The notes under the pieces were generated by a model, which saw nothing but the letters and a program-made list of their open reading frames with translations, was not told the DNA's origin and ran no database searches. Shown here piece after piece: positions 1 to 13,363 of a DNA stretch of 64,000 nt. Source of the DNA: an uncultured delta proteobacterium (lineage in GTDB: Bacteria > Desulfobacterota > Syntrophobacteria > Syntrophobacterales > Syntrophobacteraceae); contig CAWEHK010000041.1 of the NCBI GenBank assembly GCA_963808625.1, forward strand, positions 1 to 64,000, read 5' to 3'. Made by a program: the position numbers and the translations under genes. The stretch's first letter is position 1; every line of letters starts with the position of its first letter.

Positions 1-192
1 CAGAAACTACAGAATTATGGTTGAACTAAACCGCTTCGCGGTGGCGCTGGCCCCGTACGTTCTTTGACAACTGAATAGCGTTTGGGTTTTACCTGCATGG
101 AAGACTCCGGTCTCTTGCCTTCCGGGTCTGCATGCAATCTCCTTTCCGCAACAGGCAAGGGACAACCACTGTTTCTGGAAAGGAGAATGACC

Positions 193-1076
193 ATGGGAAA
201 GTTGCAGGATCAGATGCAAAGGGACCTGGAGCTCAGGAATTTGAGCTCCAGGACAAAGCGCTGCTATCTGGACTGGATGAAGCGGTTTGCAGGGCATTTC
301 CGCAAGCCGCCGGACGAACTGGGAGATGAGGAAATCAAGGGGTTCCTCCACTTCCTCCTCAATGACAGGAAAGCCTCGCAGTCATCAATGAACCAGGCCT
401 ATAGCGCCCTCAAGTTCTTCTACGAGAGAACGCTGGGGAGGCCCTGGAACGGGACGCAGATTCCCCGTTGCAAAAGAGGCAAGAGACTTCCGGTAGTTCT
501 GTCCCAGAACGAGGTCCGGTTGATTTTATCGGCGACCGAAAACCTCAAGTACCGGGCGATTCTGGTCACCATTTATGCCGCAGGGCTTCGGGTGAGCGAG
601 GTGGTCCAGCTGAAGATGGCCGACATTGACAGTCAGAGAATGACCATCCGGGTTCGGGGGAAAGGGGATCAGGATCGCTACACGCTTCTTGGCAAAAACG
701 CCTGGAACTGCTTCGCAGCTATTGGAAGGCATATCGGCCAACCGATTGGCTTTTTCCCTCCAAAAACCCGAAAGAACCGATCTCGGTCTCGTCGATTCAA
801 AAGGTTTTCAAGACATCCCTCGGCCAAACGGGGATCAGGAAAAGGGCCACGGTGCACACCCTGAGGCATTGCTTTGCGACGCATCTCCTGGAAAGTGGCT
901 GCTGATCTTTACTATATCCAGCGTGTCTGGGCCACAGCAGCGTCAAAACGACCTCGGTTTATCTTCACGTCACCCGCAAAGATCTTCGGAAGATCGTAAG
1001 CCCCACCGATCTCATGGAACTGCCCGACAATCCCACAACCTCAGGGGGGAGCCTCTCCCATGCGGTCTCCTTTTGA
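193..1076 (+). CDS. Tyrosine recombinase (SAM-like N-terminus, XerD/IntI-related, no IntI I2 insertion); frameshifted near 700 and 900-930
   Basis: AGGAG RBS at 181; motifs LPVVLS, GLRVSE, GKG, then in shifted frames WLFP, HTLRHCFATHLLE, GHSSVKTTSVY; TGA at 1074-1076 overlaps the next gene. Confidence 0.88.
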
Positions 1077-2232
1077 AGTTGCCGACATCTTCAGGGCTTG
1101 CGGGGGAAAGTATCGGGCAGCACACGGCGAGGAGATGCCCTTGAGGCAGCATCGTGCCATGCAGGCCATCGAGGTTTGCCGAACGGCTGAATTGGGTGGT
1201 CATGTGGAGGAATGCGGTGCCTGCGGCCACGTGAGGATTTCTTACAATTCCTGCCGGAACCGTCATTGCCCCAAGTGCCAGTTTCTGGCCAAGGAACGCT
1301 GGCTGGAGAGCAGGAAGCAGGATCTTCTGCCTATTAGCTACTTCCACGTGGTCTTCACCCTTCCGGAGGCGTTGAGGCCCATAGCTCTCAGGAACCAAAG
1401 AACCCTATACGGTCTTTTGTTCAAGGCCGCCAACGAGACCTTGCAGGAACTGGCAAGCGATCCGCGCCGACTTGGGGCCCAGATCGGTTGTGTCGCCCTC
1501 CTGCATACCTGGTCACGCACCCTGACCGACCATCCCCATATCCACTGCATCGTTACGGGCGGCGGGCTTTCTCTCGACGGGAAGAGGTGGATTGCCTGCC
1601 GCAAAAAGTACTTTTTCCCCGTGAAGGTTCTCTCCCGGCTCTTTCGAGGCGGCTCCTCTCCTATCTAAAAAAGGCCTATCGTTCAGGGAAGATCGGGTTT
1701 ACCGGCCAGATCGCCTCCCTTGGAGAGGAGCGCAATTTCCAGGACTTTTGCGGGCAACTCTATCGCCAGGAGTGGGTGGTTTACTGTAAGCCGCCCTTCA
1801 AGAGCGCCCAAAAGGCTATGCAGTATCTTGGCCCTGGTTGCCCTCGCCAACGAGAGGATCGTCGGGTTTGATGGAGACCGGGTTACCTTTACCTATCGGG
1901 ATTCCGCCGACCACGATAAGGTCAAGCGGATGAGTCTCGATGCCTTTGAGTTTATCCGCCGGTTCCTGTTACACATCCTGCCCGATGGGTTCATGAAGAT
2001 TCGCCACTTTGGGATTCTCAGCAATCGCAACCGAAAGACCAAGCTCGCCCGGTGCAAGACGCTCCTCGGAGTAAAGCCGGAGTGCTTCCCAGAGTCAAAC
2101 CAGCCGGAATCGTGGAGTGATCTCTTCATGCGGCTCACCGGGATCGACCTTTCGGTCTGTCCGGCTTGTGGGAAAGGGAGGATGGTGCTAAAGGAAACAC
2201 TGCTGCCAGGAGGGTCACGGTCGCCGCCTTGA
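1060..2232 (+). pseudogene. IS91-family rolling-circle (HUH Y2) transposase; frameshifted, second catalytic Tyr apparently deleted
   Basis: Zn motif CRNRHCPKC, HVVFTLP, HUH motif HPHIH, FIRRFLLHILPDGFMKIRHFG and C-terminal CPACG over three frames; expected YLGRYTHRVA reads YLG-(4 nt)-VA at 1824-1842. Confidence 0.85.
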
Positions 2233-2475
2233 AAGATGGTTATCGACCGGAAAGATGAAGACTCAAAAAACCATCCCATCCAGGGCAGCGGGGTTCTTTG
2301 GCCTTCGGCTCAAAAAAACGGGTGCAAAATGGCTGGAATGCACCCATCCGTTTCGGAGAAACGATGCCTCTGCGTCACCCAAACGCTGTTCGGTTCAAAA
2401 TCCACGGTTACCAAGAGAAAACGCTTCGCCCAGGTTTCTGATTAAAACCCCATAGCAGTTGTGCGAAGCGGCTTA

Positions 2476-2541
2476 GTTCAACACGATTGTATGGGGAATG
2501 AGAAAAAGCCCTCACTCCCCATACAATCTTACATGTTAAGT
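2476..2541 (+). other. attC-like recombination site (atypical: perfect stem, no extrahelical base)
   Basis: R'' GTTCAAC 2476-2482; R' GTTAAGT 2535-2541; internal stem GATTGTATGGGGA/TCCCCATACAATC. Confidence 0.7.
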
Positions 2542-2584
2542 GCTACAGAGAACATAGTGGAAAGTCCAGGACAAGGAGAGCAGA

Positions 2585-3427
2585 ATGATTTATAAGTATT
2601 TTCAAAGAGAACCTAAGCAAATAATAGGTGGCGGACGCCCTCATTATTTTACAAAGAAGGAGCTTGAATCTTCCGTTGAAGCAAAGGAATATAATGCTAT
2701 CCCTTATGAACCATTATATAGAATAAAAATTACCCCAAGTGAAAGAATCCATTGGGAAGAATTTGAAGGTGGGCAAATCGAAAGAAGAGTATGGGCCGCT
2801 TTTGGCCGTCATGGTGGCGGATGGGAAATGAAAACGGGGCAACAATTTTTAATGGAAACGCAAAAACAAACCGAAAATAATTGCTATGCAGGATGCTGGA
2901 TTCTGGATAAGCAATTGATCTCAGGGGGATACAGAGAAGAATATGGTTCTTTCACTGATAATGGGATGAAACATGGTTTAATACTGAACTTGTTGGAAGA
3001 GATCTTTAAGACCTATTCAGATAAAGGAGATAGCGGGGATTTGAAACACAGAGAGAAAAGTAAAGGTACTTTTCAGTGGAAAATTCCCGACGATTCAATT
3101 GGAGGGATACTCTACTGGAAGATGAAAGACTTAGAATATACTATTTCTGTATTAATTAAATCATGCGAAAATGTTTACAATGGCCTCAAGTTTTGGGGCG
3201 TTTTCTGGAAAGACAATTCTAATAACAACAAAAGAGAACTTTATAAACCTGTTGAAGTTGTTATTCCTGGATTCCCTTTGTTTACAGATAATGATATTAA
3301 AAGTAACAACATGAGTTGGTTTAAAGAAGTGCTACACAAAGGATTTGATGATATTGGCGAGATATTAGGGAGAAAGAGTAAATGCGTAGATAGATTAACT
3401 GAGTATTACAGTCTAAATCTAATTTAA
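2585..3427 (+). CDS. Hypothetical cassette protein (280 aa, AT-rich)
   Basis: AAGGAG RBS; intact ORF between R' GTTAAGT(GC) at 2535 and its complement (GC)ACTTAAC at 3442; no recognised motif. Confidence 0.8.
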   Translation: MIYKYFQREPKQIIGGGRPHYFTKKELESSVEAKEYNAIPYEPLYRIKITPSERIHWEEFEGGQIERRVWAAFGRHGGGWEMKTGQQFLMETQKQTENNCYAGCWILDKQLISGGYREEYGSFTDNGMKHGLILNLLEEIFKTYSDKGDSGDLKHREKSKGTFQWKIPDDSIGGILYWKMKDLEYTISVLIKSCENVYNGLKFWGVFWKDNSNNNKRELYKPVEVVIPGFPLFTDNDIKSNNMSWFKEVLHKGFDDIGEILGRKSKCVDRLTEYYSLNLI

Positions 3428-3441
3428 CTGTAATACTGTGC

Positions 3442-3529
3442 ACTTAACAAGAAAATCCAGCGGACAGGTAATAAGCGTAGCGTGATATTAACAAAGGTAA
3501 TTGCCCCGCCGCTAATTTTTGTGTTAGCA
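3442..3529 (+). other. attC site
   Basis: R'' ACTTAAC 3442-3448; L boxes AAAATCCAGCGG / CCGCTAATTTT with an extra C; R' GTTAGCA 3523-3529. Confidence 0.85.
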
Positions 3530-3575
3530 TGCGCCACCAGCTCGATCCTATTGAGCGAACACTGCCAGGATCAAT

Positions 3576-4538
3576 ATGAGCGATAAAAGAGACGACATCC
3601 CTGAATTCCAGTATGATGTATGTTTATCATTCGCTGGAAAAGAACGTGACTATGTTAGGAGTCTTGCGTTCGCTTTAAATCAGGCGGGAGTGCGGGTCTT
3701 CTATGATGAATATGAGCAGGCGGAATTATGGGGAAAGGATCTGTATACGCATCTGGATTATGTATATCGCCAGAGTGCTAGATTCTGTGTTTTATTCATT
3801 TCGAAGCATTATGCTGAAAAACTATGGACTAATCACGAAAGACAGAGTGCTCAAGCAAGGGCATTCACTGAAAATCGAGAGTACATATTGCCCGCCCGCT
3901 TTGATGACACAGCAATTCCCGGTTTGCGCAATACTGTTGGCTACATAGATCTCCGTACCACTACGCAATCCGAACTCCTCCCCCTTATCCTACAGAAAGT
4001 CGGAGAGCGACCCCGTGTTAACTACTTGCCACCAGTTCCAGATAGGCTTTTTGCCTTATTGAAAGCAAAAAATCAGAGGAAGAAAGAGAAGATCTTAGAT
4101 CAAGCTTATGGTTTTTTCGAGGGTCTTCAACGGATGTCACCTGAGGAGCGTAATGTAATTTTTACTGTATTCTTGCATGGGTGCGATGGAGAACTACCCG
4201 ACAACATTCATATGAACATTGACTTACTTCGGCGCTACACCGGTCTGACACCTATAAAGCTCAAGCAAGTACTCGGAGGATTGCAATCTCTTGGATTCTT
4301 CTGCTCGCTTCGTGAGGATGATGAAAATCCGGAGTACCTCGGCAGTTACGAAATGGTAGTCTTAGAGTGGCATAATCTACGTTCAAAATCGTCTGGAAAT
4401 GCAACCAAAGTCGCTTATACAATGGTTACAGGTTGCAGTGTTGACACGTGCATGAGGTGCTGGATTGAAGCAATCAATCGTCTGGACTTCTCTCAGTTGG
4501 CATCCGCAACGGCAAGCATTGACGATCACAAAGAATAG
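3576..4538 (+). CDS. TIR domain protein (TIR_2-type) with C-terminal helical/wHTH-like region, carried as a cassette
   Basis: YDVCLSFAG...VFYDEYE...LWGKDL...FISKHY...WTNHE...YILPARFDDT...GYIDLR is a typical bacterial TIR with the catalytic Glu position conserved. Confidence 0.88.
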   Translation: MSDKRDDIPEFQYDVCLSFAGKERDYVRSLAFALNQAGVRVFYDEYEQAELWGKDLYTHLDYVYRQSARFCVLFISKHYAEKLWTNHERQSAQARAFTENREYILPARFDDTAIPGLRNTVGYIDLRTTTQSELLPLILQKVGERPRVNYLPPVPDRLFALLKAKNQRKKEKILDQAYGFFEGLQRMSPEERNVIFTVFLHGCDGELPDNIHMNIDLLRRYTGLTPIKLKQVLGGLQSLGFFCSLREDDENPEYLGSYEMVVLEWHNLRSKSSGNATKVAYTMVTGCSVDTCMRCWIEAINRLDFSQLASATASIDDHKE

Positions 4539-4626
4539 GATTTGATCATGTAGCAGACGAAGTTGAACAGATGAAGACTTCAGAAGGTTGCTTAAGAACA
4601 AGCTCGGTTCAACATACACCTGTTAT

Positions 4627-4717
4627 TGCTAACAAAAAAATCCAGCGGTCGGCGGGGAACGCCTCTTCCATCTTCTTCTTGGCCTTTGGCCCGCCGCCGC
4701 TGATTTTCACGTTGGCT
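4627..4717 (+). other. attC site
   Basis: R'' TGCTAAC 4627-4633 (complement of GTTAGCA at 3523); L boxes AAAATCCAGCGG / CCGCTGATTTT; R' GTTGGC(T) from 4711; L arm closely matches attC at 3442. Confidence 0.88.
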
Positions 4718-5546
4718 TGCGACACGATGTCGCATAGTTGAGTGTACTCAGGTAGTTACCTGGAGTACCCGGCATGTTCCTGCCGGTCTCTACGCAGGCG
4801 TGCTACCGTCGCGCTGATGACGGGGTGCGAAGCCCTGTGGACAATGTACCGAATCGGGTTCAACTGGTGACAGGCGAACCCCTCGGGGAATCCTCCCCCG
4901 TTAAGGGCTGGAGAGGGATGATATGGTGAAAACATTTGAATTCCTGCAAGCGTCGTCAACGAATACAGACCTACGAGGATTAACCTCGTTTTGCAGGTCG
5001 AGGGCCGCTTCCCAGTGTTTGCGGCAAGAGGTCAGGTTGCAGGTCTCCTAACTGCCTGCACGGAACCGTAGTACCTCCGGCGTAGAGGGCGCACCTAAGT
5101 CATCCATAGGATCAACTATGTGGAACGTGGAAACCTCGTATCTCCGCCTGGTTTTCCAGGCAGGTGAACCGCAAGGCACACTGTTGGGGGTGCGGGATGA
5201 AGAGGCTGGAAGAAGCGAATGCCATCCTGTAACGGGATGGATACGGGTTCAAGATTTGCCCGGCCCGAAAGGGAGCAGACGTCCGGCGGGTGTCTCATTG
5301 CGAGAAAGCTGAGAGAACCACAGCAAGGAAGGAAAGCAAATGAACACGGCTTCGGCCAGTGTGTGCACCTTCCCCCGAAAGGCATTGTGGCTGTTGGCGT
5401 GTATCGCAAAGTCAATGAGGGCAGTTCCTCATCGGCGGGTGGCTCCACAAGGGCTCACCATTGAGATGCTTGAGCCGCGTGACGGGAAACTGTCACGCAC
5501 GGTTCTGGGGGGGGAAAGGGACCGAGAGGCCCCTGACCTACCCGGT
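4717..5546 (+). ncRNA. Group II intron (IIB/CL-like) with internally deleted IEP
   Basis: 5' end TTGCGACACG; full-length domain V GAGCCGCGTGACGGGAAACTGTCACGCACGGTTC 5472-5505 (AGC triad, GAAA loop); domain VI ending CCTACCCGGT; RBS + ATG at 5340 but no RT coding capacity. Ends uncertain by 1-2 nt. Confidence 0.85.
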
Positions 5547-5800: not shown

Positions 5801-6205
5801 ATGAAAAAGGTCATGGCCTGCCGCAAACGTCCATGCCGCATTTGCAAACGCTGGTTCAGAGCCAATCCACGACTTAAAGACCGCCAGATGACCTGTGGAG
5901 AGGAATCGTGTAAGCGTGAGTGGCACCGGAGAAAGTGCGCCCAGTGGAACAGAGAGAATTCTGAGCCCATCAAGAAAGAGCGTTTGGCGCAAAAGCTCAA
6001 AGCCGCCGCTTGGGCAGGCGGGCAGACGAAGCTCTCGGCTGAAACGCCTTCTCGCCCGGCATCCGTGCAGAGCGAACACCTCCTGCCATGGATTCAAGAG
6101 GTGATCACCGTTCAAGTTATTATAATGCTTGATTATTTGGTCCGACATTCGGTGAAGCATGCTCAAGAAGTGATTCGCAGGCAAGCTGCCGTAAATACAG
6201 GATGA
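5801..6205 (+). CDS. Basic Cys-rich (putative Zn-finger) accessory protein
   Basis: GGAG RBS; CRICKRWF...RQMTCGEESC...C pattern. Confidence 0.7.
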   Translation: MKKVMACRKRPCRICKRWFRANPRLKDRQMTCGEESCKREWHRRKCAQWNRENSEPIKKERLAQKLKAAAWAGGQTKLSAETPSRPASVQSEHLLPWIQEVITVQVIIMLDYLVRHSVKHAQEVIRRQAAVNTG

Positions 6206-6295
6206 TTGGTCCAACTACCCGCCCGGGTCGTTCAAGATGTGATCGACCCGGGTGAGCCCACTTTGGTAGCTTCTTCATGGAACAAGGAGGAGCCA

Positions 6296-7176
6296 ATGGG
6301 CGAAGAAAAATGGACCGATATTCCCGTAAGCGCGATAGGTGAGAGTTATGGCCGTTTTCGTCTCATTTATCCGGGCAGTGAAGTCACCGTGATCGAATCT
6401 ATGCGCCAGTTCGGACAGATCCTTCCGGTCGTCGTGGTAAAAGGGCTGGAGCCTTCCTGTTATGAAATGATCGACGGCTTCAAACGGCTTCGAGCTTCTC
6501 GCAAACTGGGGTTGAAGACCATCCAGGCAAAGGTGCTCTCTCTTGAGGCGCCACCTCTTAAAGCAGCGATCCTTCAACTCAACTGGAAGGCAAGATCCAT
6601 CCGGGAGGTGGAAGAGGCGTTGATCGTCCAGTCCCTTCATCGGGAGGACAAGCTTAGCCAGGTGGAAATAGGGCTTCTCCTGAGGCGGCACAAAAGCTGG
6701 GTCTCCCGGCGTATCGCTCTGGTAGAAAAGCTCTCCGATGAAGTGCTGAGCAACCTCAAGCTCGGACTGATCAGTGCGGGCCACGGCCGTCAGCTCACCC
6801 GGTTGCCACGTGGCAACCAGGACAGGGCCCTTGCGACTATCCTAAAGCACCGTCTGTGCTGCAGGGAAGCCGAGAAGCTCGTTGCCATGCTCTGTGAGCG
6901 TCCGGATGGGAGCATGAGGCCATCCTGCATCTTCCCCTCAAAATCCTCGATGAGCGCACACCGCCTCGCCCTTCCAGACAAATTAAAGAGGAGCATGAGC
7001 CCTCTTTGGCCGAGCAACTTCGGGACTTTAAAAAGACCTGCGAGGGGCTCCTGGGCGCCATCAGTGTCTGTGACCTCGATCCGTTGAGCCCGCAGGAGCG
7101 GGAGCTCCTGCTTCCTCTCACCGAAAGCCTCGAGATTCTCCTGCGTCGGATGAGAAATGCTCTCAACACAACATGA
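6296..7176 (+). CDS. ParB/Srx-like N-terminal domain + HTH protein; frameshift near 6905
   Basis: AAGGAGG RBS; SMRQFGQILPVVV...YEMIDGFKRLRA (GxxR motif); HTH LSQVEIGLLLRRHKSWVSRR; reading continues in a shifted frame to TGA 7174-7176. Confidence 0.8.
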
Positions 7177-7186
7177 GGAAAACCCC

Positions 7187-8783
7187 ATGCCGCCCCTCAT
7201 TATTTCCAGTCGAGAGGACCTTGAGCATCAACTGGTGACCCTCTACGCCCAGGGCTTGAACATCCGAGCCCTCTCGAGGCATTTTTGTCTGGGCAGAAAC
7301 ACCGTAAGGCGCATCCTTCGCAAACACAAAGCCAGGCGGGAGCATGGTCATGATGCCAAAGGATCACCTCTTCCCCGGGCAAGCAAGCTCGATCCCTATC
7401 TACCTCGGATCCGGGCCCTTCTGGATGAGTTTCCAGACATCACCGGTGAGCGCCTCTTTGAAGAGATGCGGGCCGAAGGCTATATGGGAGGGATCTCCAT
7501 CCTGAGGGACCGCCTTCGGTCCATGCGATCTCACCCGAAGAAGGAGCCGGTCGTCCGCTTTGAGACAGACCCGGGGGTTCAGGGACAAATGGACTGGAGC
7601 CCCTACACCATCCGGTTCCTGAAGGGCGGCAAGGCCACAGTTTTATGCTTTTCCTACATCCTGGCTTTCTCCAGAAGACAGTATATCGATTTTACTCTTC
7701 ATCGTGATTTCCATACTCTGATCAGACGCCACCGGGATGCCTTCGACTTTTTTGGCGGCGTTCCACGACACTGCCTATACGATGGAGAAAAGACGGTGGT
7801 GCTGCGCTTTGAGGCCGGGCGCCCCGTTTTTAATCCCGCCTTCATCGCCTTTATCACCCATTATGAATGCCATCCCATAGCCGTCCGGCGGGCCAGAACG
7901 AAAGGAAAGGTGGAAAGACCCTTCCAGTTTGTCGAAGGCAATCTCCTGAATGGGCGCAAGTTCCAGGATCTTGAGCACTTGAGGGCCATGGCCGGCTGGT
8001 GGATGAAGGAAAAAAGCGACCGCCATCGCCATGAAACCACAGGCCAGGTCGTGATCGAGCTCTTCCTGGAGCAGGAAAAGGATGCTCTCCGGCCCCTCCC
8101 CGTACACCCCTATGATTGCTCCGAGGTGGCCCACAGGGTCTGCCGTGTCGATGGCTTCATCGAGTTTGAGACCAACCTCTATTCCGTTCCCTACCAGTAT
8201 GTGGCCGATATCCTGGTCTTGAAGGCCACCGAGCAGGAGGTGAGCTTCTATCAGTCCTGATCTCGAGCTCATTGCATGCCACGAGCGCCTTCCCACAGGC
8301 GCATCAAAGATGGTCGAAAACCCGGAGCATCGCCTGCACCCCAAAACACGCTATGGACTCGAGCCCGTCAGAGAATCCTTCCTCGCTCTGGGACAAGCAT
8401 CAGAGGACTTCCTCAAAGGCCTCCAGCAAAAACACCCTAGAAACTGCGGCTTTCACGCCCGCTTCATCCTGAGGCTCAAAGAGCACTATGCATCGGATGA
8501 CATCAACTCTGCCCTTCGCCATGCAACGGTCTACCACGCCTATGACGGCAGAGCCATCGAGAGGATCTTGAAGGCAAAGGCTAAACCCAGGACCCTGGAA
8601 GCTATCAGGAACGACCGGGCAAGGACAGCACTCACGCAATCACTCCCGGTCATCCGGCAACGCAATCTCGAGGATTACTGCACCTTTCTCTCACAGAATG
8701 GAGAACACCATGGACCAGACCACAGCCCGGATCAAAAAGCACCTGAAAGCCCTCAAGCTCTCGACCATGGAAAAGATCCTTGA
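7187..8783 (+). CDS. istA: IS21-family transposase IstA; frameshift near 8250
   Basis: N-terminal HTH, SKLDPY, RFETDPGVQGQMDW, GVPRHCLYD, KGKVERPF, YSVP; C-terminus in ORF 8310-8783. Confidence 0.9.
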
Positions 8784-9513
8784 TCAGGAGCTCGCCAGGG
8801 CTGCCAGCGAAAAGAGCCCGCCATCCACTTTGATCCTGCGTCTTCTCGATGCTGAAGCTCAGGCGGCAAGGGCGCGCCGCATCGAACGGCGCATCCGGGA
8901 ATCCGCCCTTGCCGAGCGCAAGCTTCTCGCCGACTTCGATTTTGACTTCCAGAAGGGCATTGACAAAAGCCAGATCATGGAGCTCGCAAACCTGGGCTTC
9001 GTTGAGCGAAAGCAGGGGCTAATCCTGGCAGGATCGTCCGGAACTGGCAAAAGTCACATCGCCAAAGCCCTTCTACTCATCGCTTGCTCCCAGCTCTATT
9101 CCTGCCGCTACACCACCGCATCCAACATGCTCTCGAACCTCATGGCCTCGCTTTGCGACGGCACCCTCCATAACGCTCTCAAAGTCTACACCCGCCCCCA
9201 AGTCCTTCTCATCGACGAGATCGGCTTCGACCGCATCGAGCAGGAATCAGCAAGAAATGCCGCCCTCTTCTTCAAAGTCATTGATGCAAGGTATTGCAAG
9301 GGCTCAACCATCGCGACCTGCAACATCAACTTCAAAGAGCTGGGTGATTATCTCGGAGACCCCGTCATCACAGCCTCCCTCGTTGACAGGATGGTCCATC
9401 ACTCCATCATCATCCACATCGAAGGACCCAGCTACAGGATGCATGAATCCAAGAGGCTCAACCGCGCCGCCACCAAGAGAGGAAAAGACCATGGCGAGCC
9501 GACCCATGATTGA
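8710..9513 (+). CDS. istB: IS21-family AAA+ helper ATPase IstB
   Basis: FDFDFQ, Walker A GSSGTGKS, Walker B LLIDEIG, DRMVHH, GPSYR. Confidence 0.93.
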   Translation: MDQTTARIKKHLKALKLSTMEKILDQELARAASEKSPPSTLILRLLDAEAQAARARRIERRIRESALAERKLLADFDFDFQKGIDKSQIMELANLGFVERKQGLILAGSSGTGKSHIAKALLLIACSQLYSCRYTTASNMLSNLMASLCDGTLHNALKVYTRPQVLLIDEIGFDRIEQESARNAALFFKVIDARYCKGSTIATCNINFKELGDYLGDPVITASLVDRMVHHSIIIHIEGPSYRMHESKRLNRAATKRGKDHGEPTHD

Positions 9514-9946
9514 CAGGTCGCCGCTCCTGCCGGAAAGAGCTCGAAAGATCCAGGGAAGCTTTGCCTTTATCGAGCACCGCTTCCTTCAGGGCGGTTTCTT
9601 GCAGACCCTAACCCATCATGAGCTCCTCCTTTACTTCTTCCTGATCCTTGCCGCCGATCGAAATGGCATTTCCTTTTACAGCTACGATCGCATATGCACG
9701 ATCCTCGGCCTGGGGGTAGAGGACTACATCCTCGCTCGAAACGGTCTCATCCGCAAAGACCTGCTCGCCTTCGACGGCCATCGCTTCCAGGCCCTCTCCC
9801 TTCCCCCAAAGCCTGTGCGCTCATCCACACGACTTCTCAAGACCCAACACGACATGATCGAGCATGATCCTGCAACCATCCATCGCGAAATCTGCCATGC
9901 TCTGGGTACAGACCCCGACAAACGAACCAAGACTTCCCGAAAGTAG
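9506..9946 (+). CDS. Winged-helix (replication-initiator-like) accessory protein
   Basis: Overlaps istB stop; LTHHELLLYFFL..AADRNGISFYSYDRICTILGL...ARNGLIRKDLL resembles Rep/HTH_36-like wHTH folds. Confidence 0.6.
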   Translation: MIDRSPLLPERARKIQGSFAFIEHRFLQGGFLQTLTHHELLLYFFLILAADRNGISFYSYDRICTILGLGVEDYILARNGLIRKDLLAFDGHRFQALSLPPKPVRSSTRLLKTQHDMIEHDPATIHREICHALGTDPDKRTKTSRK

Positions 9947-10292
9947 ATAACCTGCCCGGCAGCCACAGCACTACCATTAAAAGATCTCGCCATCGGCATT
10001 TGCTCCTCCATTCATTCTTCTACCTTCCACCACTTCCCTTGAACACCTTCCGGACACTGCCTGCGCTTCTCGAAGAATCTGTCGACGCACGAAACGCTCA
10101 GATCGGGAAGAATAAGAAGTAGATTCAAAGAAGATCAATTGCGGGCGGGCGGACTACACTGGACAGACCAGCCGGGCCTCAGAGGGTGGGTCCAAAAACC
10201 GGTGGAAACGAACCGGAAAATCCCGATTATGCTATTCTCGCGTGGGTCCACTTCTCAGGTCTCAAAGGGTTCATTCTCTATCGGTGGTGACA

Positions 10293-10476
10293 GTTTCACA
10301 AGGTAAAATGCATCCAGCCTTTGCCGTATCGCTTTAGGACCGCAAGGCAGCTCCCGGTTGTATAATTCGAGACGTACAAATTCTACAATTTCCTCGATTT
10401 CTTGCTTCGTACACATTGGATTGTAATCAGACAAGCAATCCTCATTTACCTCTACCCATTCTCCGTATGTCGACAT
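10293..10476 (-). pseudogene. Small passenger ORF downstream of istB, cut by the adjacent IS end
   Basis: EIEEIVEFVRLELYNRELPCGPKAIRQRL (resembles the HTH region of integrase-core transposases) runs into the IS terminus at 10292. Confidence 0.5.
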
Positions 10477-10563
10477 CGAATGCTCCTGATGATTTGTCGT
10501 TCATATTCTTTCTTGCCTTCTCAATGCGACAATTTTATCCGCAACATGGAAGCCTACCGGCCA

Positions 10564-11352
10564 TCACGACACGACGTTGTCTTTAGGCGCCTTCGGCGAT
10601 TCTCTTCTCGCTCTTAGGGTTTCCTTCAGTCGATAGCTGTCCCAATTGCAATGGATGATATGAGCCTTATGGGTCAACCGATCCAGGAGCGCTGCCGTCA
10701 GCGTGGCGTCGCCAAACACTTGCGTCCAATCGGCAAATCCAAGGTTGGTAGTAACAATGACTGAGCCCCGCTCGTGACGCTCCGCCAACACTTGGAACAG
10801 CAATTCAGCGGACTCCTTGGAAAAAGGGACGTAACCCAACTCGTCAACCACCACTAACCCGTAGCGGGCATATTTCTGTATCACCCGGCTCAGTCTGCGC
10901 TCTGTTTGAGCCTCGATGAGCTCATTACTCACCCCGCAACAATTTACGAACCGTGTGCTGATCCCTTGCCCGCAAGCGGCAACCCCCAATCCGGTCGCCA
11001 AGTGCGTCTTGCCTGCGCCACTTTTTCCCGTGAAGATGATATTTCTATGACTGCGAAGGTATTCTCCGGATTCCAGCTCGCGCATTAAGCGTTTGTCCAG
11101 TCCAGGAGCGCTGCTGTAATCAAATTGCTCCAGGGTCTTCAGCAAAGGAAATTTTGCCTCCCGGAGCTTACGCTTCAGACGGTTTTCCGCTCTCATCTGA
11201 AGCTCCACTTCGGTGGTGGCCAGAAGAAACTCCTCGTGGCTGGTTCCATTCTCCCGCGCTTGGCGCAGCAAGGACCCAAGGTTCGCGTACATATGCGATA
11301 GGTTGAGTGCCTTCAGATTCTCTTTGAGCAGCATCTCGGTACTGGCTTTCAT
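10564..11352 (-). CDS. istB: IS21-family helper ATPase IstB
   Basis: AKFPLLKTLEQFDY, GKSGAGKTHLA, VVDELGY, LLDRLTH, SYRL. Confidence 0.95.
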   Translation of the reverse strand: MKASTEMLLKENLKALNLSHMYANLGSLLRQARENGTSHEEFLLATTEVELQMRAENRLKRKLREAKFPLLKTLEQFDYSSAPGLDKRLMRELESGEYLRSHRNIIFTGKSGAGKTHLATGLGVAACGQGISTRFVNCCGVSNELIEAQTERRLSRVIQKYARYGLVVVDELGYVPFSKESAELLFQVLAERHERGSVIVTTNLGFADWTQVFGDATLTAALLDRLTHKAHIIHCNWDSYRLKETLRARRESPKAPKDNVVS

Positions 11353-12845
11353 GACAAACCTCCCAGCTGCGCATACACCGAAACGTCAGCCGGTTCGGTT
11401 GCCGGCCAGCCACATAGAGGCTCACACGCACCTACCCTATTTACCGGCAGCAGCAGGTGTTTTACTCCAGCGCTGGAGCTCACCCCATTTTGGACCGCCC
11501 GCTCCACCGCAGCCTCCACATCTTCGGTCCGATGTTCCCGGTAGAGCATCAACACCATAATAAAATCCCGTGTTCCATCGGTTTCGCCATTACTTGCTAC
11601 AAACTTATCCCGGAGCCGCTCCAAACACTCCGGCCAGCTCTTGCGCCACTCTCTTATGGGCCGGGCCGAATCGAAAGCCCCGGGCCTCTGATAAAGCAGA
11701 TCCAGGTAATGGTCCGGATTAAGCTGCCATTTGTTGTTGCCGAACATTCTCCCATGGCTCGCTATCTTCTTGCCTCTCTGGTAAACCTCCACACGGTCCA
11801 CTTCAAGGATCGCCTTTACCGGAAACCCAACATAACATGTGGGAACCGAGTAACGGTTCTTGTCCACGATGACGGTTGAATAAGGATTTACCTTGCTGTA
11901 CACCGTCTCTATGTTGCTGAACGGATGCGTCGGGAGTGCCAATAAATGGGCTCTTTCTTCCTCGAAGAGCTCATCGACGCTTTTCTCACGACCCTCTATC
12001 CGATGGCTTCCGTACTGCACACAGCTCCCCAGGATCTCTTCGTTAAGCTCCTCAAGGCTCTCGGCTCTCGGGATGGGAACCATGTAGTTGCGCCTGGCAA
12101 AACCTACCAATCCTTCCACACCACCCTTTTCGTGGCCGCTGTCTTTATTACAAAAACGCGCCGTGAAATTATAGTAACTGTGAAACTTCCTGAACGCCTC
12201 CTGTTCCCGGCGGTCTTTCCCCTTGAGAACCTTTTCCACGGCGCTGGTCAGATTGTCGTAAATCAACGTCCCGAAAACCCCACCATAGAATGAAAACGCC
12301 CGTATATGCGCATCAAAGAAGGCTGCTTGCCTCTCACATGGGTAACACCGCACAAAGTGCTTCCCCGAATACTTGGAGCGCATGCAAAAAAACTTGAGCC
12401 GTGTCGCCTCTCCGGCAATGATCGCCACAGCCCCTCCCCAGTCCGCTTCAGCCTCTTTGCCACAATCCGGCTCCAAAGGAATAAAGGCCTTGTCCCCACT
12501 TAATCCCAGACCTATCTTGGCTTGCCGCACGTACTGGCGAACCGTTGTGGCACAACCTGCAAAACCTTCTTCCCGTACCAGTCGATGATAGATCCTCGTC
12601 GCCGTGTGACGTTGCTTTCGCGGAGAATCCTTGTCCCCTTCCAACCATGAATCGATCAGACTCAAGTACGGTCCGAGCACCGGATACGGCTGAGATTGCC
12701 TCTGTCCGTAACCACTTGGCTCACCCCTCAAAACCTTGCGGATCGTCTTCCGATCATGGCCTGTTTCCCGCGCAATCTCTCGTAAACCCTTCCCATAAAC
12801 CCGATGCGCTATCCGAATGTACTCATACTGATCCATGTTGATCAT
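11349..12845 (-). CDS. istA: IS21-family transposase IstA
   Basis: HTH REIARETGHDRKTIRK, EAEADWG, LIYDN, EKGGVEGLV, NRYSVP; ATGA overlap with istB. Confidence 0.95.
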   Translation of the reverse strand: MINMDQYEYIRIAHRVYGKGLREIARETGHDRKTIRKVLRGEPSGYGQRQSQPYPVLGPYLSLIDSWLEGDKDSPRKQRHTATRIYHRLVREEGFAGCATTVRQYVRQAKIGLGLSGDKAFIPLEPDCGKEAEADWGGAVAIIAGEATRLKFFCMRSKYSGKHFVRCYPCERQAAFFDAHIRAFSFYGGVFGTLIYDNLTSAVEKVLKGKDRREQEAFRKFHSYYNFTARFCNKDSGHEKGGVEGLVGFARRNYMVPIPRAESLEELNEEILGSCVQYGSHRIEGREKSVDELFEEERAHLLALPTHPFSNIETVYSKVNPYSTVIVDKNRYSVPTCYVGFPVKAILEVDRVEVYQRGKKIASHGRMFGNNKWQLNPDHYLDLLYQRPGAFDSARPIREWRKSWPECLERLRDKFVASNGETDGTRDFIMVLMLYREHRTEDVEAAVERAVQNGVSSSAGVKHLLLPVNRVGACEPLCGWPATEPADVSVYAQLGGLS

Positions 12846-13205
12846 CCCTCCTGTCCTCCGGTAACTCTGGTTGATGAATTCACCAGATCTTGCTACCAGA
12901 TGACTCTGAAGGGTGGGGGAATTTTGGACTGTCATCTGCCCCTTAAGTGGGGGAATTTTAGGCTATCAAAATCAAAGGTTCTCTTCTTGATCCGCTTTTT
13001 TCGTTGTCGCAGAACATTCGGCCATTAGTTTGTCACACAACTTCGTAAGTGCTGATACCGGTTCGTCTGTCTTGTCAGTTTGCAGGGGTTGCGGTTGGGG
13101 TGGTGGGTCCGTTCAAGGGTGAACTTGGCACCAGGGTAGCAGGCGAAAAAAGAAGACTCGGAGCGATCCGGGCCTTTTGTTGTTTAGAGGGCATTTCGGG
13201 GCTCT

Positions 13206-13286: not shown

Positions 13287-13363
<77 letters not shown>

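Follow-up and report, generated by a model that had tools for sequence, protein, structure and literature searches.

An IS91-type element at the head of a cassette array

The window, by which we mean the whole stretch of 64,000 nucleotides analysed, starts at a contig end (C41 of G000) and leaves a left flank of only 19 nt before a mobile element that spans 21-2535 (+). Its gene content agrees with the earlier sequence-only reading: a tyrosine recombinase (PF13495 and PF00589) is followed by an IS91 transposase (PF14319 and PF04986, NF033538). The features of the element and of the two gene cassettes behind it are as follows.

1..20, +, left half of the target site, cut by the contig edge; G20 is provisionally given to the target by analogy with relatives
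21..22, +, putative carried dinucleotide TT, which from the behaviour of relatives would have arrived with the element
23..42, +, left end, terIS-like: GAAC (bottom strand GTTC), then a small palindrome at 30-42
193..1076, +, gene for an IntI-related tyrosine recombinase, with frameshifts near 700, 900 and 925
1060..2232, +, IS91-family HUH/Y2 transposase gene, frameshifted near 1650 and 1833
2448..2455, +, CCCCATAG motif ahead of the right inverted repeat, conserved in position among relatives
2463..2482, +, subterminal inverted repeat that complements 20-39 at 19/20 positions and would form the outer stem of the predicted circle-junction hairpin
2485..2528, +, inner terminal hairpin, an oriIS-like palindrome, attC-like only in outline
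2529..2535, +, right end with the crossover G2535/T2536, where the flanks of close relatives diverge
2536..3523, +, gene cassette 1, with a 280-aa ORF at 2585-3427 and a canonical attC at 3442-3529
3524..4711, +, gene cassette 2, with a TIR-domain ORF at 3576-4538 and a canonical attC at 4627-4717

The window copy is a dead copy, with either decay or assembly error behind its frame changes. The change near 1833 removes the second tyrosine of the transposase YxxRY motif, and related metagenome contigs keep a transposase stretch that is missing here. An intact paralogue lies in the same assembly (G000 C8, about 54.9-57.35 kb). The last recombinase frame runs to a stop at 1076, past the transposase ATG at 1060, and in relatives the gap between the two genes is mostly a few to about 20 nt. 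Of the translational coupling proposed earlier, the overlap and the short spacing stand, and these make the coupling itself plausible.

The end motifs named in the sequence-only reading are all present (GTTGAAC at 20-26, GTTCAAC at 2476-2482 and GTTAAGT at 2535-2541). The arms 20-39 and 2463-2482 are complementary at 19/20 positions, which bears out the claim that an R''-like end complements the element's own 5' core, and the terminal hairpin at 2485-2528 has 18-nt arms. Folding of 2455-2545 gave z = -5.6 for the bottom strand and -4.4 for the top. The two following cassettes obey the core rule, with 7/7 and 7/7 matches, and we assigned TTAAGT to cassette 1 because the R'' of that cassette is its 7/7 complement. 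The base equivalent to G20 is G or A between identical copies in G063.

The terminal hairpin does not behave as an attC. Beneath the AAC/GTT pair it leaves 2 versus 6 bases unpaired, it lacks an extrahelical base, and it fails two attC detectors, our own heuristics and not IntegronFinder, that pass both neighbouring cassettes. The canonical criteria (L box, unpaired central spacer, extrahelical bases) were taken from passages of PMC2727003. Of the proposal that the unit is built as a cassette, the G/TTRRRY start and the R'' complementary to its own core hold, and the canonical attC structure is absent. No near-identical copy or empty allele of the window locus was found among 60 relatives or by a pattern search in 122 genomes of the class, and a right-end-to-left-end joint was not found in contigs from small shares of public runs.

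A second further copy in the same assembly (C24, from about 4848) lies inverted beside a cassette array, and its left end is CAAG (bottom CTTG, the other IS91 tetranucleotide). The flanks of the C24 and C8 copies were scanned with the attC heuristic, and neither passed.

Relatives and the recombinase

We took as relatives the best 80 of 604 confirmed transposase stretches. A recombinase gene or its remnant lies directly upstream in 79 of these 80 loci, and both enzymes keep their catalytic residues: the recombinase R-K-H-R-H-Y set is retained in 57-58 of 58 intact pairs, and the HUH (HxH) and Y2 (YxxxY) residues of the transposase are invariant in 58/58. The transposase is about 400 aa long and has no helicase domain. 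PGAP names the pair an IS91 family transposase and a site-specific tyrosine recombinase/integron integrase, and thousands of plasmid records match the transposase. The family is also found in Alphaproteobacteria and Clostridia, where its cores have other sequences.

The recombinase lacks the I2 helix insertion of IntI, as defined in part of PMC7790495: the alignment shows gaps over that region, and TIGR02249 gives a two-piece match below the cut-off. A quick tree resolved three groups, namely the element recombinases (support 88), IntI (98) and XerC/D (99), with the longest stem leading to Xer; built with two outgroups and no archaeal XerA, which scores just as well, it does not establish sisterhood with IntI.

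Many copies in G144 have a transposase interrupted by an insertion and occupy separate sites, and therefore the enzymes act in trans. Other insertion sequences sit repeatedly in the element in this genome (L370, L387, L393-L427), at one point in the first bases of the left end and at one fixed point in the transposase. Two gene-less, MITE-like short derivatives (L474 and L475, G018) carry both ends and are followed by G/TT or G/TC.

Spread in genomes without an IntI match

The claim that the element is autonomous from host IntI is supported. Eight of the 10 multi-copy genomes have no match to TIGR02249 at E<=1e-45 (genome completeness is not given), the two with IntI being G063 and G072. INDEPENDENCE from IntI is thus seen in 8 genomes without an IntI match that hold 3-51 transposase copies each.

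Ends and the folded junction

We compared the ends of the relatives. The left end follows the consensus G-x-A-C-[T/G]-A-A-x-C-C-G-C and then a small palindrome in 44 of 49, and at the data-defined left boundary the bottom strand reads GTTC/GTCC (in a few cases GTGC or GTAC). On the bottom strand this end fits the terIS of IS801, IS1294 and IS1294b as described in sections of PMC13181058. The inverse of the left end recurs about 160-275 nt past the transposase, with a second hairpin next and then the element end. This second hairpin has z below -2 in 21 of 26 relatives. Of 35 right ends, 3 pass the strict attC heuristic. The same end architecture occurs with non-GTT cores in other clades. The element's last base matches the last spacer base in Clostridium and G144, and not in G069 and G063.

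Six variable positions covary between the two ends across 28 distinct end pairs. Of the core mismatches, 36 in all, G-T wobbles account for 15 on the bottom strand and for 1 on the top. The end families compared are related, so that covariation p-values are overstated, and the terIS motif also served to locate the ends in both the covariation and the junction-fold comparisons. When left and right ends were joined virtually, the bottom strand gave the better junction fold in 14/14 families; so it did for the window, with -39.5 kcal/mol against -35.4 kcal/mol on the top strand, in line with the folded junction of the sequence-only reading. The junction hairpin is shown in silico, and its use in a circle would follow from the model set out below.

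Target sites

A pattern scan gave at least 121 stretches, which yielded 112 distinct left flanks long enough to test. The element had been called a parasite of cassette arrays, yet about 90% of the 112 left flanks (among the matches listed) are not attC. We counted 5 forward and 5 inverted attC sites among the 112 (again among the matches listed), compared with 0.6% forward and 0.8% inverted for control GTTs at the same threshold; element flanks are thus enriched for attC yet form a minority. That the attC matches among these listed flanks split over both orientations speaks against an attC-cassette habit. We rejected the rule that the element is always at attC, with 5/112 by the strict detector (among the matches listed) versus 37/3173 controls, and dropped a fold-based attC detector as unspecific (25/112, among the matches listed, versus 45/300).

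A different motif prevails. WA-N7-TT is present in 59 of the 112 left flanks (among the matches listed), versus 9.5% of control GTTs, and AA-N7-TT precedes 7/7 copies in G063; two flanks, among the matches listed, end in an attI-like run, by comparison with attI1. The dyad symmetry of reconstructed targets peaks at a 6-nt spacer in G069, G144, G146, G062 and G068, the spacer is 7 in G063, and the consensus of the target extends from about -15 to +11. The sequence-only reading had the element's recombinase carry out integration, and the target is indeed of recombinase type, with dyad arms around a 6-7 bp spacer. Entry takes place at the spacer edge, which is the attI geometry, and flank comparison of relatives supports entry at the G/TT register. 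In multi-copy families the right flanks do not start with GAAC or CAAG, the IS91 target tetranucleotides.

In the targets on Clostridium estertheticum plasmids, almost perfect palindromic arms enclose 6-7 nt; at one of these sites the element points one way in one strain and the opposite way in another. We considered that each target might be its own ssDNA hairpin and rejected this, as arm pairing within a site is not above shuffled pairings: p was 0.6-0.9 in G069, G144, G146, G063, G143 and G073, and 0.011 only in G068, which is dominated by one repeated target. Symmetry at the level of the consensus and not of the single site suggests, on sequence grounds, that the dyad is a putative double-stranded protein-binding site.

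On the non-mobilizable C. estertheticum plasmids (L494-L500), many copies of a palindromic site, its 6-7 bp spacer variable, are dispersed among the accessory genes; this may be the site of another recombinase system. The targets in G069, G144 and G146 resemble a dispersed, loosely palindromic alphaproteobacterial repeat.

In the clade of the window, some copies head cassette arrays: the window copy, L471 and L478, with first cores 7/7, and L458, which has a divergent intI about 1 kb away. Several other copies of the clade have no array behind them.

Two carried bases

Where a clade's core is not fixed as TT, otherwise identical copies have variable dinucleotides at both flanks. The dinucleotides at the two ends differ in 48 of 58 paired copies (24/32 in G069, 10/11 in G144 and 14/15 in G146), tandem self-targets having been dropped from the count. 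Empty sites hold a single pair: one dinucleotide is present in 4 of 5 matches to the empty consensus site (with a pattern allowing 1-5 bases), in the empty site for L330 and, as a single TT, in 7/7 empty paralogous Clostridium sites. A two-base target duplication is ruled out by the left/right differences and these Clostridium sites. The closest pairs of similar targets have the right dinucleotide in common and differ in the left one; in moderately similar target pairs this lead of the right side weakens to a modest one, the right versus the left dinucleotide being shared in 11 versus 7 of 22 cases in G069 and 4 versus 2 of 17 in G144. Tandem junctions contain exactly two, variable, bases (AT, AG; TT, GT).

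From the left/right differences, the one-pair empty sites, the similar target pairs and the tandem junctions we infer that the right pair belongs to the target and the left pair comes with the element. Two bases that travel with the element are what is new here. A carried pair means that excision apparently takes place at the terIS register, 3' of the pair, and integration 5' of it, at the G/TT register. The two registers thus appear to lie two bases apart, one that of IS91 terIS and the other that of integron G/TT. A restored start codon was also tried as proof of the register and discarded, as two of the three frames are short.

The carried bases may stem from the right flank of the donor, which is supported in G069 only. 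There, the set of right dinucleotides includes 28 of the 30 left ones (permutation p = 0.005). In G144 the figure is 22 of 26 (p = 0.12, with about half of the right ends sampled), and the same permutation is uninformative in G146, leaving G069 as the one genome with a significant result. In the window's own clade TT stands on both sides and the carry-over is invisible; with TT on both sides of the window copy, the result mimics a cassette.

Proposed mechanism

We favour, with moderate confidence, a division of labour in which copy-out of a single-stranded circle falls to the HUH enzyme and integration of that circle to the I2-less recombinase. The HUH enzyme would peel off the bottom strand, starting two bases beyond the right end and stopping at the left-end GTTC/GTCC. 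Such a start would add two donor bases from the right flank to the circle. There, pairing between the left end and the subterminal inverted repeat would form a long hairpin, stabler on the bottom strand. The element's own tyrosine recombinase would then exchange this folded strand with a double-stranded dyad site at the spacer edge, G/TT, and replication would resolve the integration junction. In the GTT-core clade, attI-like sites and both attC halves would fit the dyad target, which would account for the cassette-like look of the window copy and for its place at the head of an array.

Autonomy from IntI, G/TT entry, the folded junction and the recombinase-type target together favour integration by the element's own recombinase. 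The assignment of the enzymes to the steps, the circle itself and its resolution are parts of the model that we infer. Two points count against HUH-driven exit and recombinase-driven entry: no tetranucleotide is conserved in the flank at the proposed start nick, in contrast to IS91 oriIS, and the I2 helix, which blocks the second strand exchange in IntI according to part of PMC7790495, is absent here, where a second exchange would be lethal. The sequence-only reading had the HUH protein replicate an excised circle. Its integration step is the one we favour; the flank pattern suggests that the HUH enzyme makes the circle and does more than replicate one excised by the recombinase.

An alternative close to that earlier version, which we regard as unlikely, gives both excision and integration to the recombinase, with a strand bias and a footprint like that of SEs or Tn554, and leaves the HUH enzyme to amplify the circle or resolve the junction. 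SEs do copy 6 flank bases from the donor to the new site with tyrosine recombinases alone (in the account of SEs within PMC10214605), and GTTC/GTCC in the circle junction could be a replication origin. The footprint observed here, however, is 2 nt and lies outside the spacer instead of equalling its 6-7 nt, and the excision boundary coincides with the cleavage tetranucleotides of IS91 terIS.

We consider it quite unlikely that the HUH enzyme transposes the element alone, in the manner of IS91 or Helitron2, with the end hairpin as its substrate and the recombinase as an accessory, for example in multimer or cointegrate resolution. Bottom-strand circles, the terIS motif, palindromes at both ends and the lack of a target duplication would match IS91, tandem dimers exist, and the asymmetric terminal repeats and TT targets resemble those of Helitron2. 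Set against these are right flanks that do not open with GAAC or CAAG, the dyad-symmetric target consensus of about -15 to +11, and registers of integration and excision two bases apart, whereas IS91 uses one register.

Very improbable is the capture of an IS91-type element as an ordinary gene cassette that host IntI alone would move. In its favour, the host genome has several intI genes, the unit stands in register directly before two cassettes and heads their array, a G063 copy has a divergent intI about 1 kb away, and a passage of PMC9229058 interpreted ISShvi3 beside attC as a new type of cassette structure. Against it, the element's end departs from a canonical attC, 8 genomes without an IntI match each hold 3-51 transposase copies, attC sites were entered in both orientations and the same end architecture has non-GTT cores elsewhere. 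Secondary shuffling of the element by IntI is possible.

Relation to known systems

The element belongs to the catalogued IS91 family with an upstream tyrosine recombinase, and is cassette-like at integration and IS91-like at excision; it matches neither canonical IS91 nor an integron cassette in all respects. ISSod25 and ISAzo26 are further recombinase-bearing members, a type listed in ISfinder/TnPedia, and a Shewanella ISSod25 report is said to have linked such members to attC. Judged by descriptions and not by sequence comparison, the element is very probably of the same kind as ISShvi3 and ISWz1, which have the same two-gene layout. ISShvi3 adjoined an attC in the part of PMC9229058 concerned with it, and ISWz1 occurs in tandem within resistance islands in passages of PMC11322121. 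Full-text searches, with most subscription journals outside their scope, found no literature on the ends, targets or mechanism of this pair, and the portions of PMC5737581 covered hold nothing on it.

Canonical IS91, IS801 and IS1294 share with it an HUH Y2 transposase with an N-terminal zinc-binding domain. Also common to them and the element are a terIS-type tetranucleotide and a palindrome upstream of the transposase gene, palindromes downstream of it, the lack of a target duplication and a favoured bottom strand (sections of PMC13181058). Unlike canonical IS91, the element has a long dyad target and no GTTC/CTTG target at the right end, it carries two bases, its two ends can pair, and a recombinase stands where IS91 has orf121. 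The sequence-only reading set it against a classical IS91; it does differ from canonical IS91, but its left end is of the terIS type.

With integron cassettes and IntI it shares the G/TT crossover, the R''-like core complement, the folded bottom strand, the attI-like AA-N7-TT target and a related recombinase. In contrast to cassettes, it has no extrahelical bases or canonical spacer, its recombinase lacks the I2 helix, a conserved outer stem of 15-20 bp extends beyond the core, and it brings its own enzymes and spreads free of IntI. SEs and Tn554 resemble the element, as modelled here, in single-strand copy-out, a recombinase-type target and carried donor flank bases (as reported within PMC10214605). 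Yet SEs carry 6 bases and use several recombinases and no HUH enzyme, and the element carries 2 bases and has one recombinase and one HUH enzyme.

In their ends, Helitron2 and Helentron resemble the element in asymmetric terminal repeats with hairpins and in TT insertion. AT/TT targets of Helitrons are given in part of PMC10288648. Their RepHel has a fused helicase, and the element's transposase has no helicase domain. In CTXphi, a tyrosine recombinase integrates HUH-made ssDNA. The phage relies on the XerCD of its host and one dif site, whereas the element brings its own recombinase to many sites; integration at dif is mentioned in a passage of PMC9345347.

The gene pair is very common and catalogued as IS91, and we found no description of the recombinase's role. 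If the model of HUH exit and recombinase entry is true, the pair would represent a transposition pathway that splits the work between two unrelated chemistries, and the recombinase would be a naturally occurring enzyme that lacks I2 and works on single-stranded DNA in folded form. The tie of ISWz1 to resistance islands means that the target rule bears on where such islands grow. Missing intermediates hamper study of integron origin, as stated in part of PMC7790495. It is a doubtful speculation that integrons have in these elements a surviving sister group or a stage that preceded them, with an IntI-related recombinase without I2 that already integrates a folded single strand, supplied by an HUH enzyme, at G/TT of attI-like sites. 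On this view integrons could have arisen once such a recombinase gained I2 and took over excision, with non-autonomous end-only derivatives turning into cassettes.

Cassettes and other neighbours

The 280-aa protein of cassette 1 has no match in Pfam, NCBIfam, PADLOC or Atlas. The TIR-domain ORF of cassette 2 matches PDC-S66 and ThsB in PADLOC and is likely an anti-phage defence gene. Four intI genes occur in G000 (C51, C15, C44, C1), all apparently frameshifted or truncated; no overlap between the window's contig edge and an intI was found in that assembly.

An ORF-less group II intron (RF02012, RF00029) at 4717-5546 lies just past the attC of cassette 2, in cassette orientation, and resembles the IIB intron found after an attC in a section of PMC7923331. 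Copies about 95% identical are present on C53 and C44 of G000, a longer relative on C36, and a partial copy on C24 after another attC. Further along the window, 5801-12935 holds two IS21-type elements, one with a ParB-domain gene before it, and a tRNA gene follows them at 13290-13363. The first 13 kb of the window may be an island at this tRNA.
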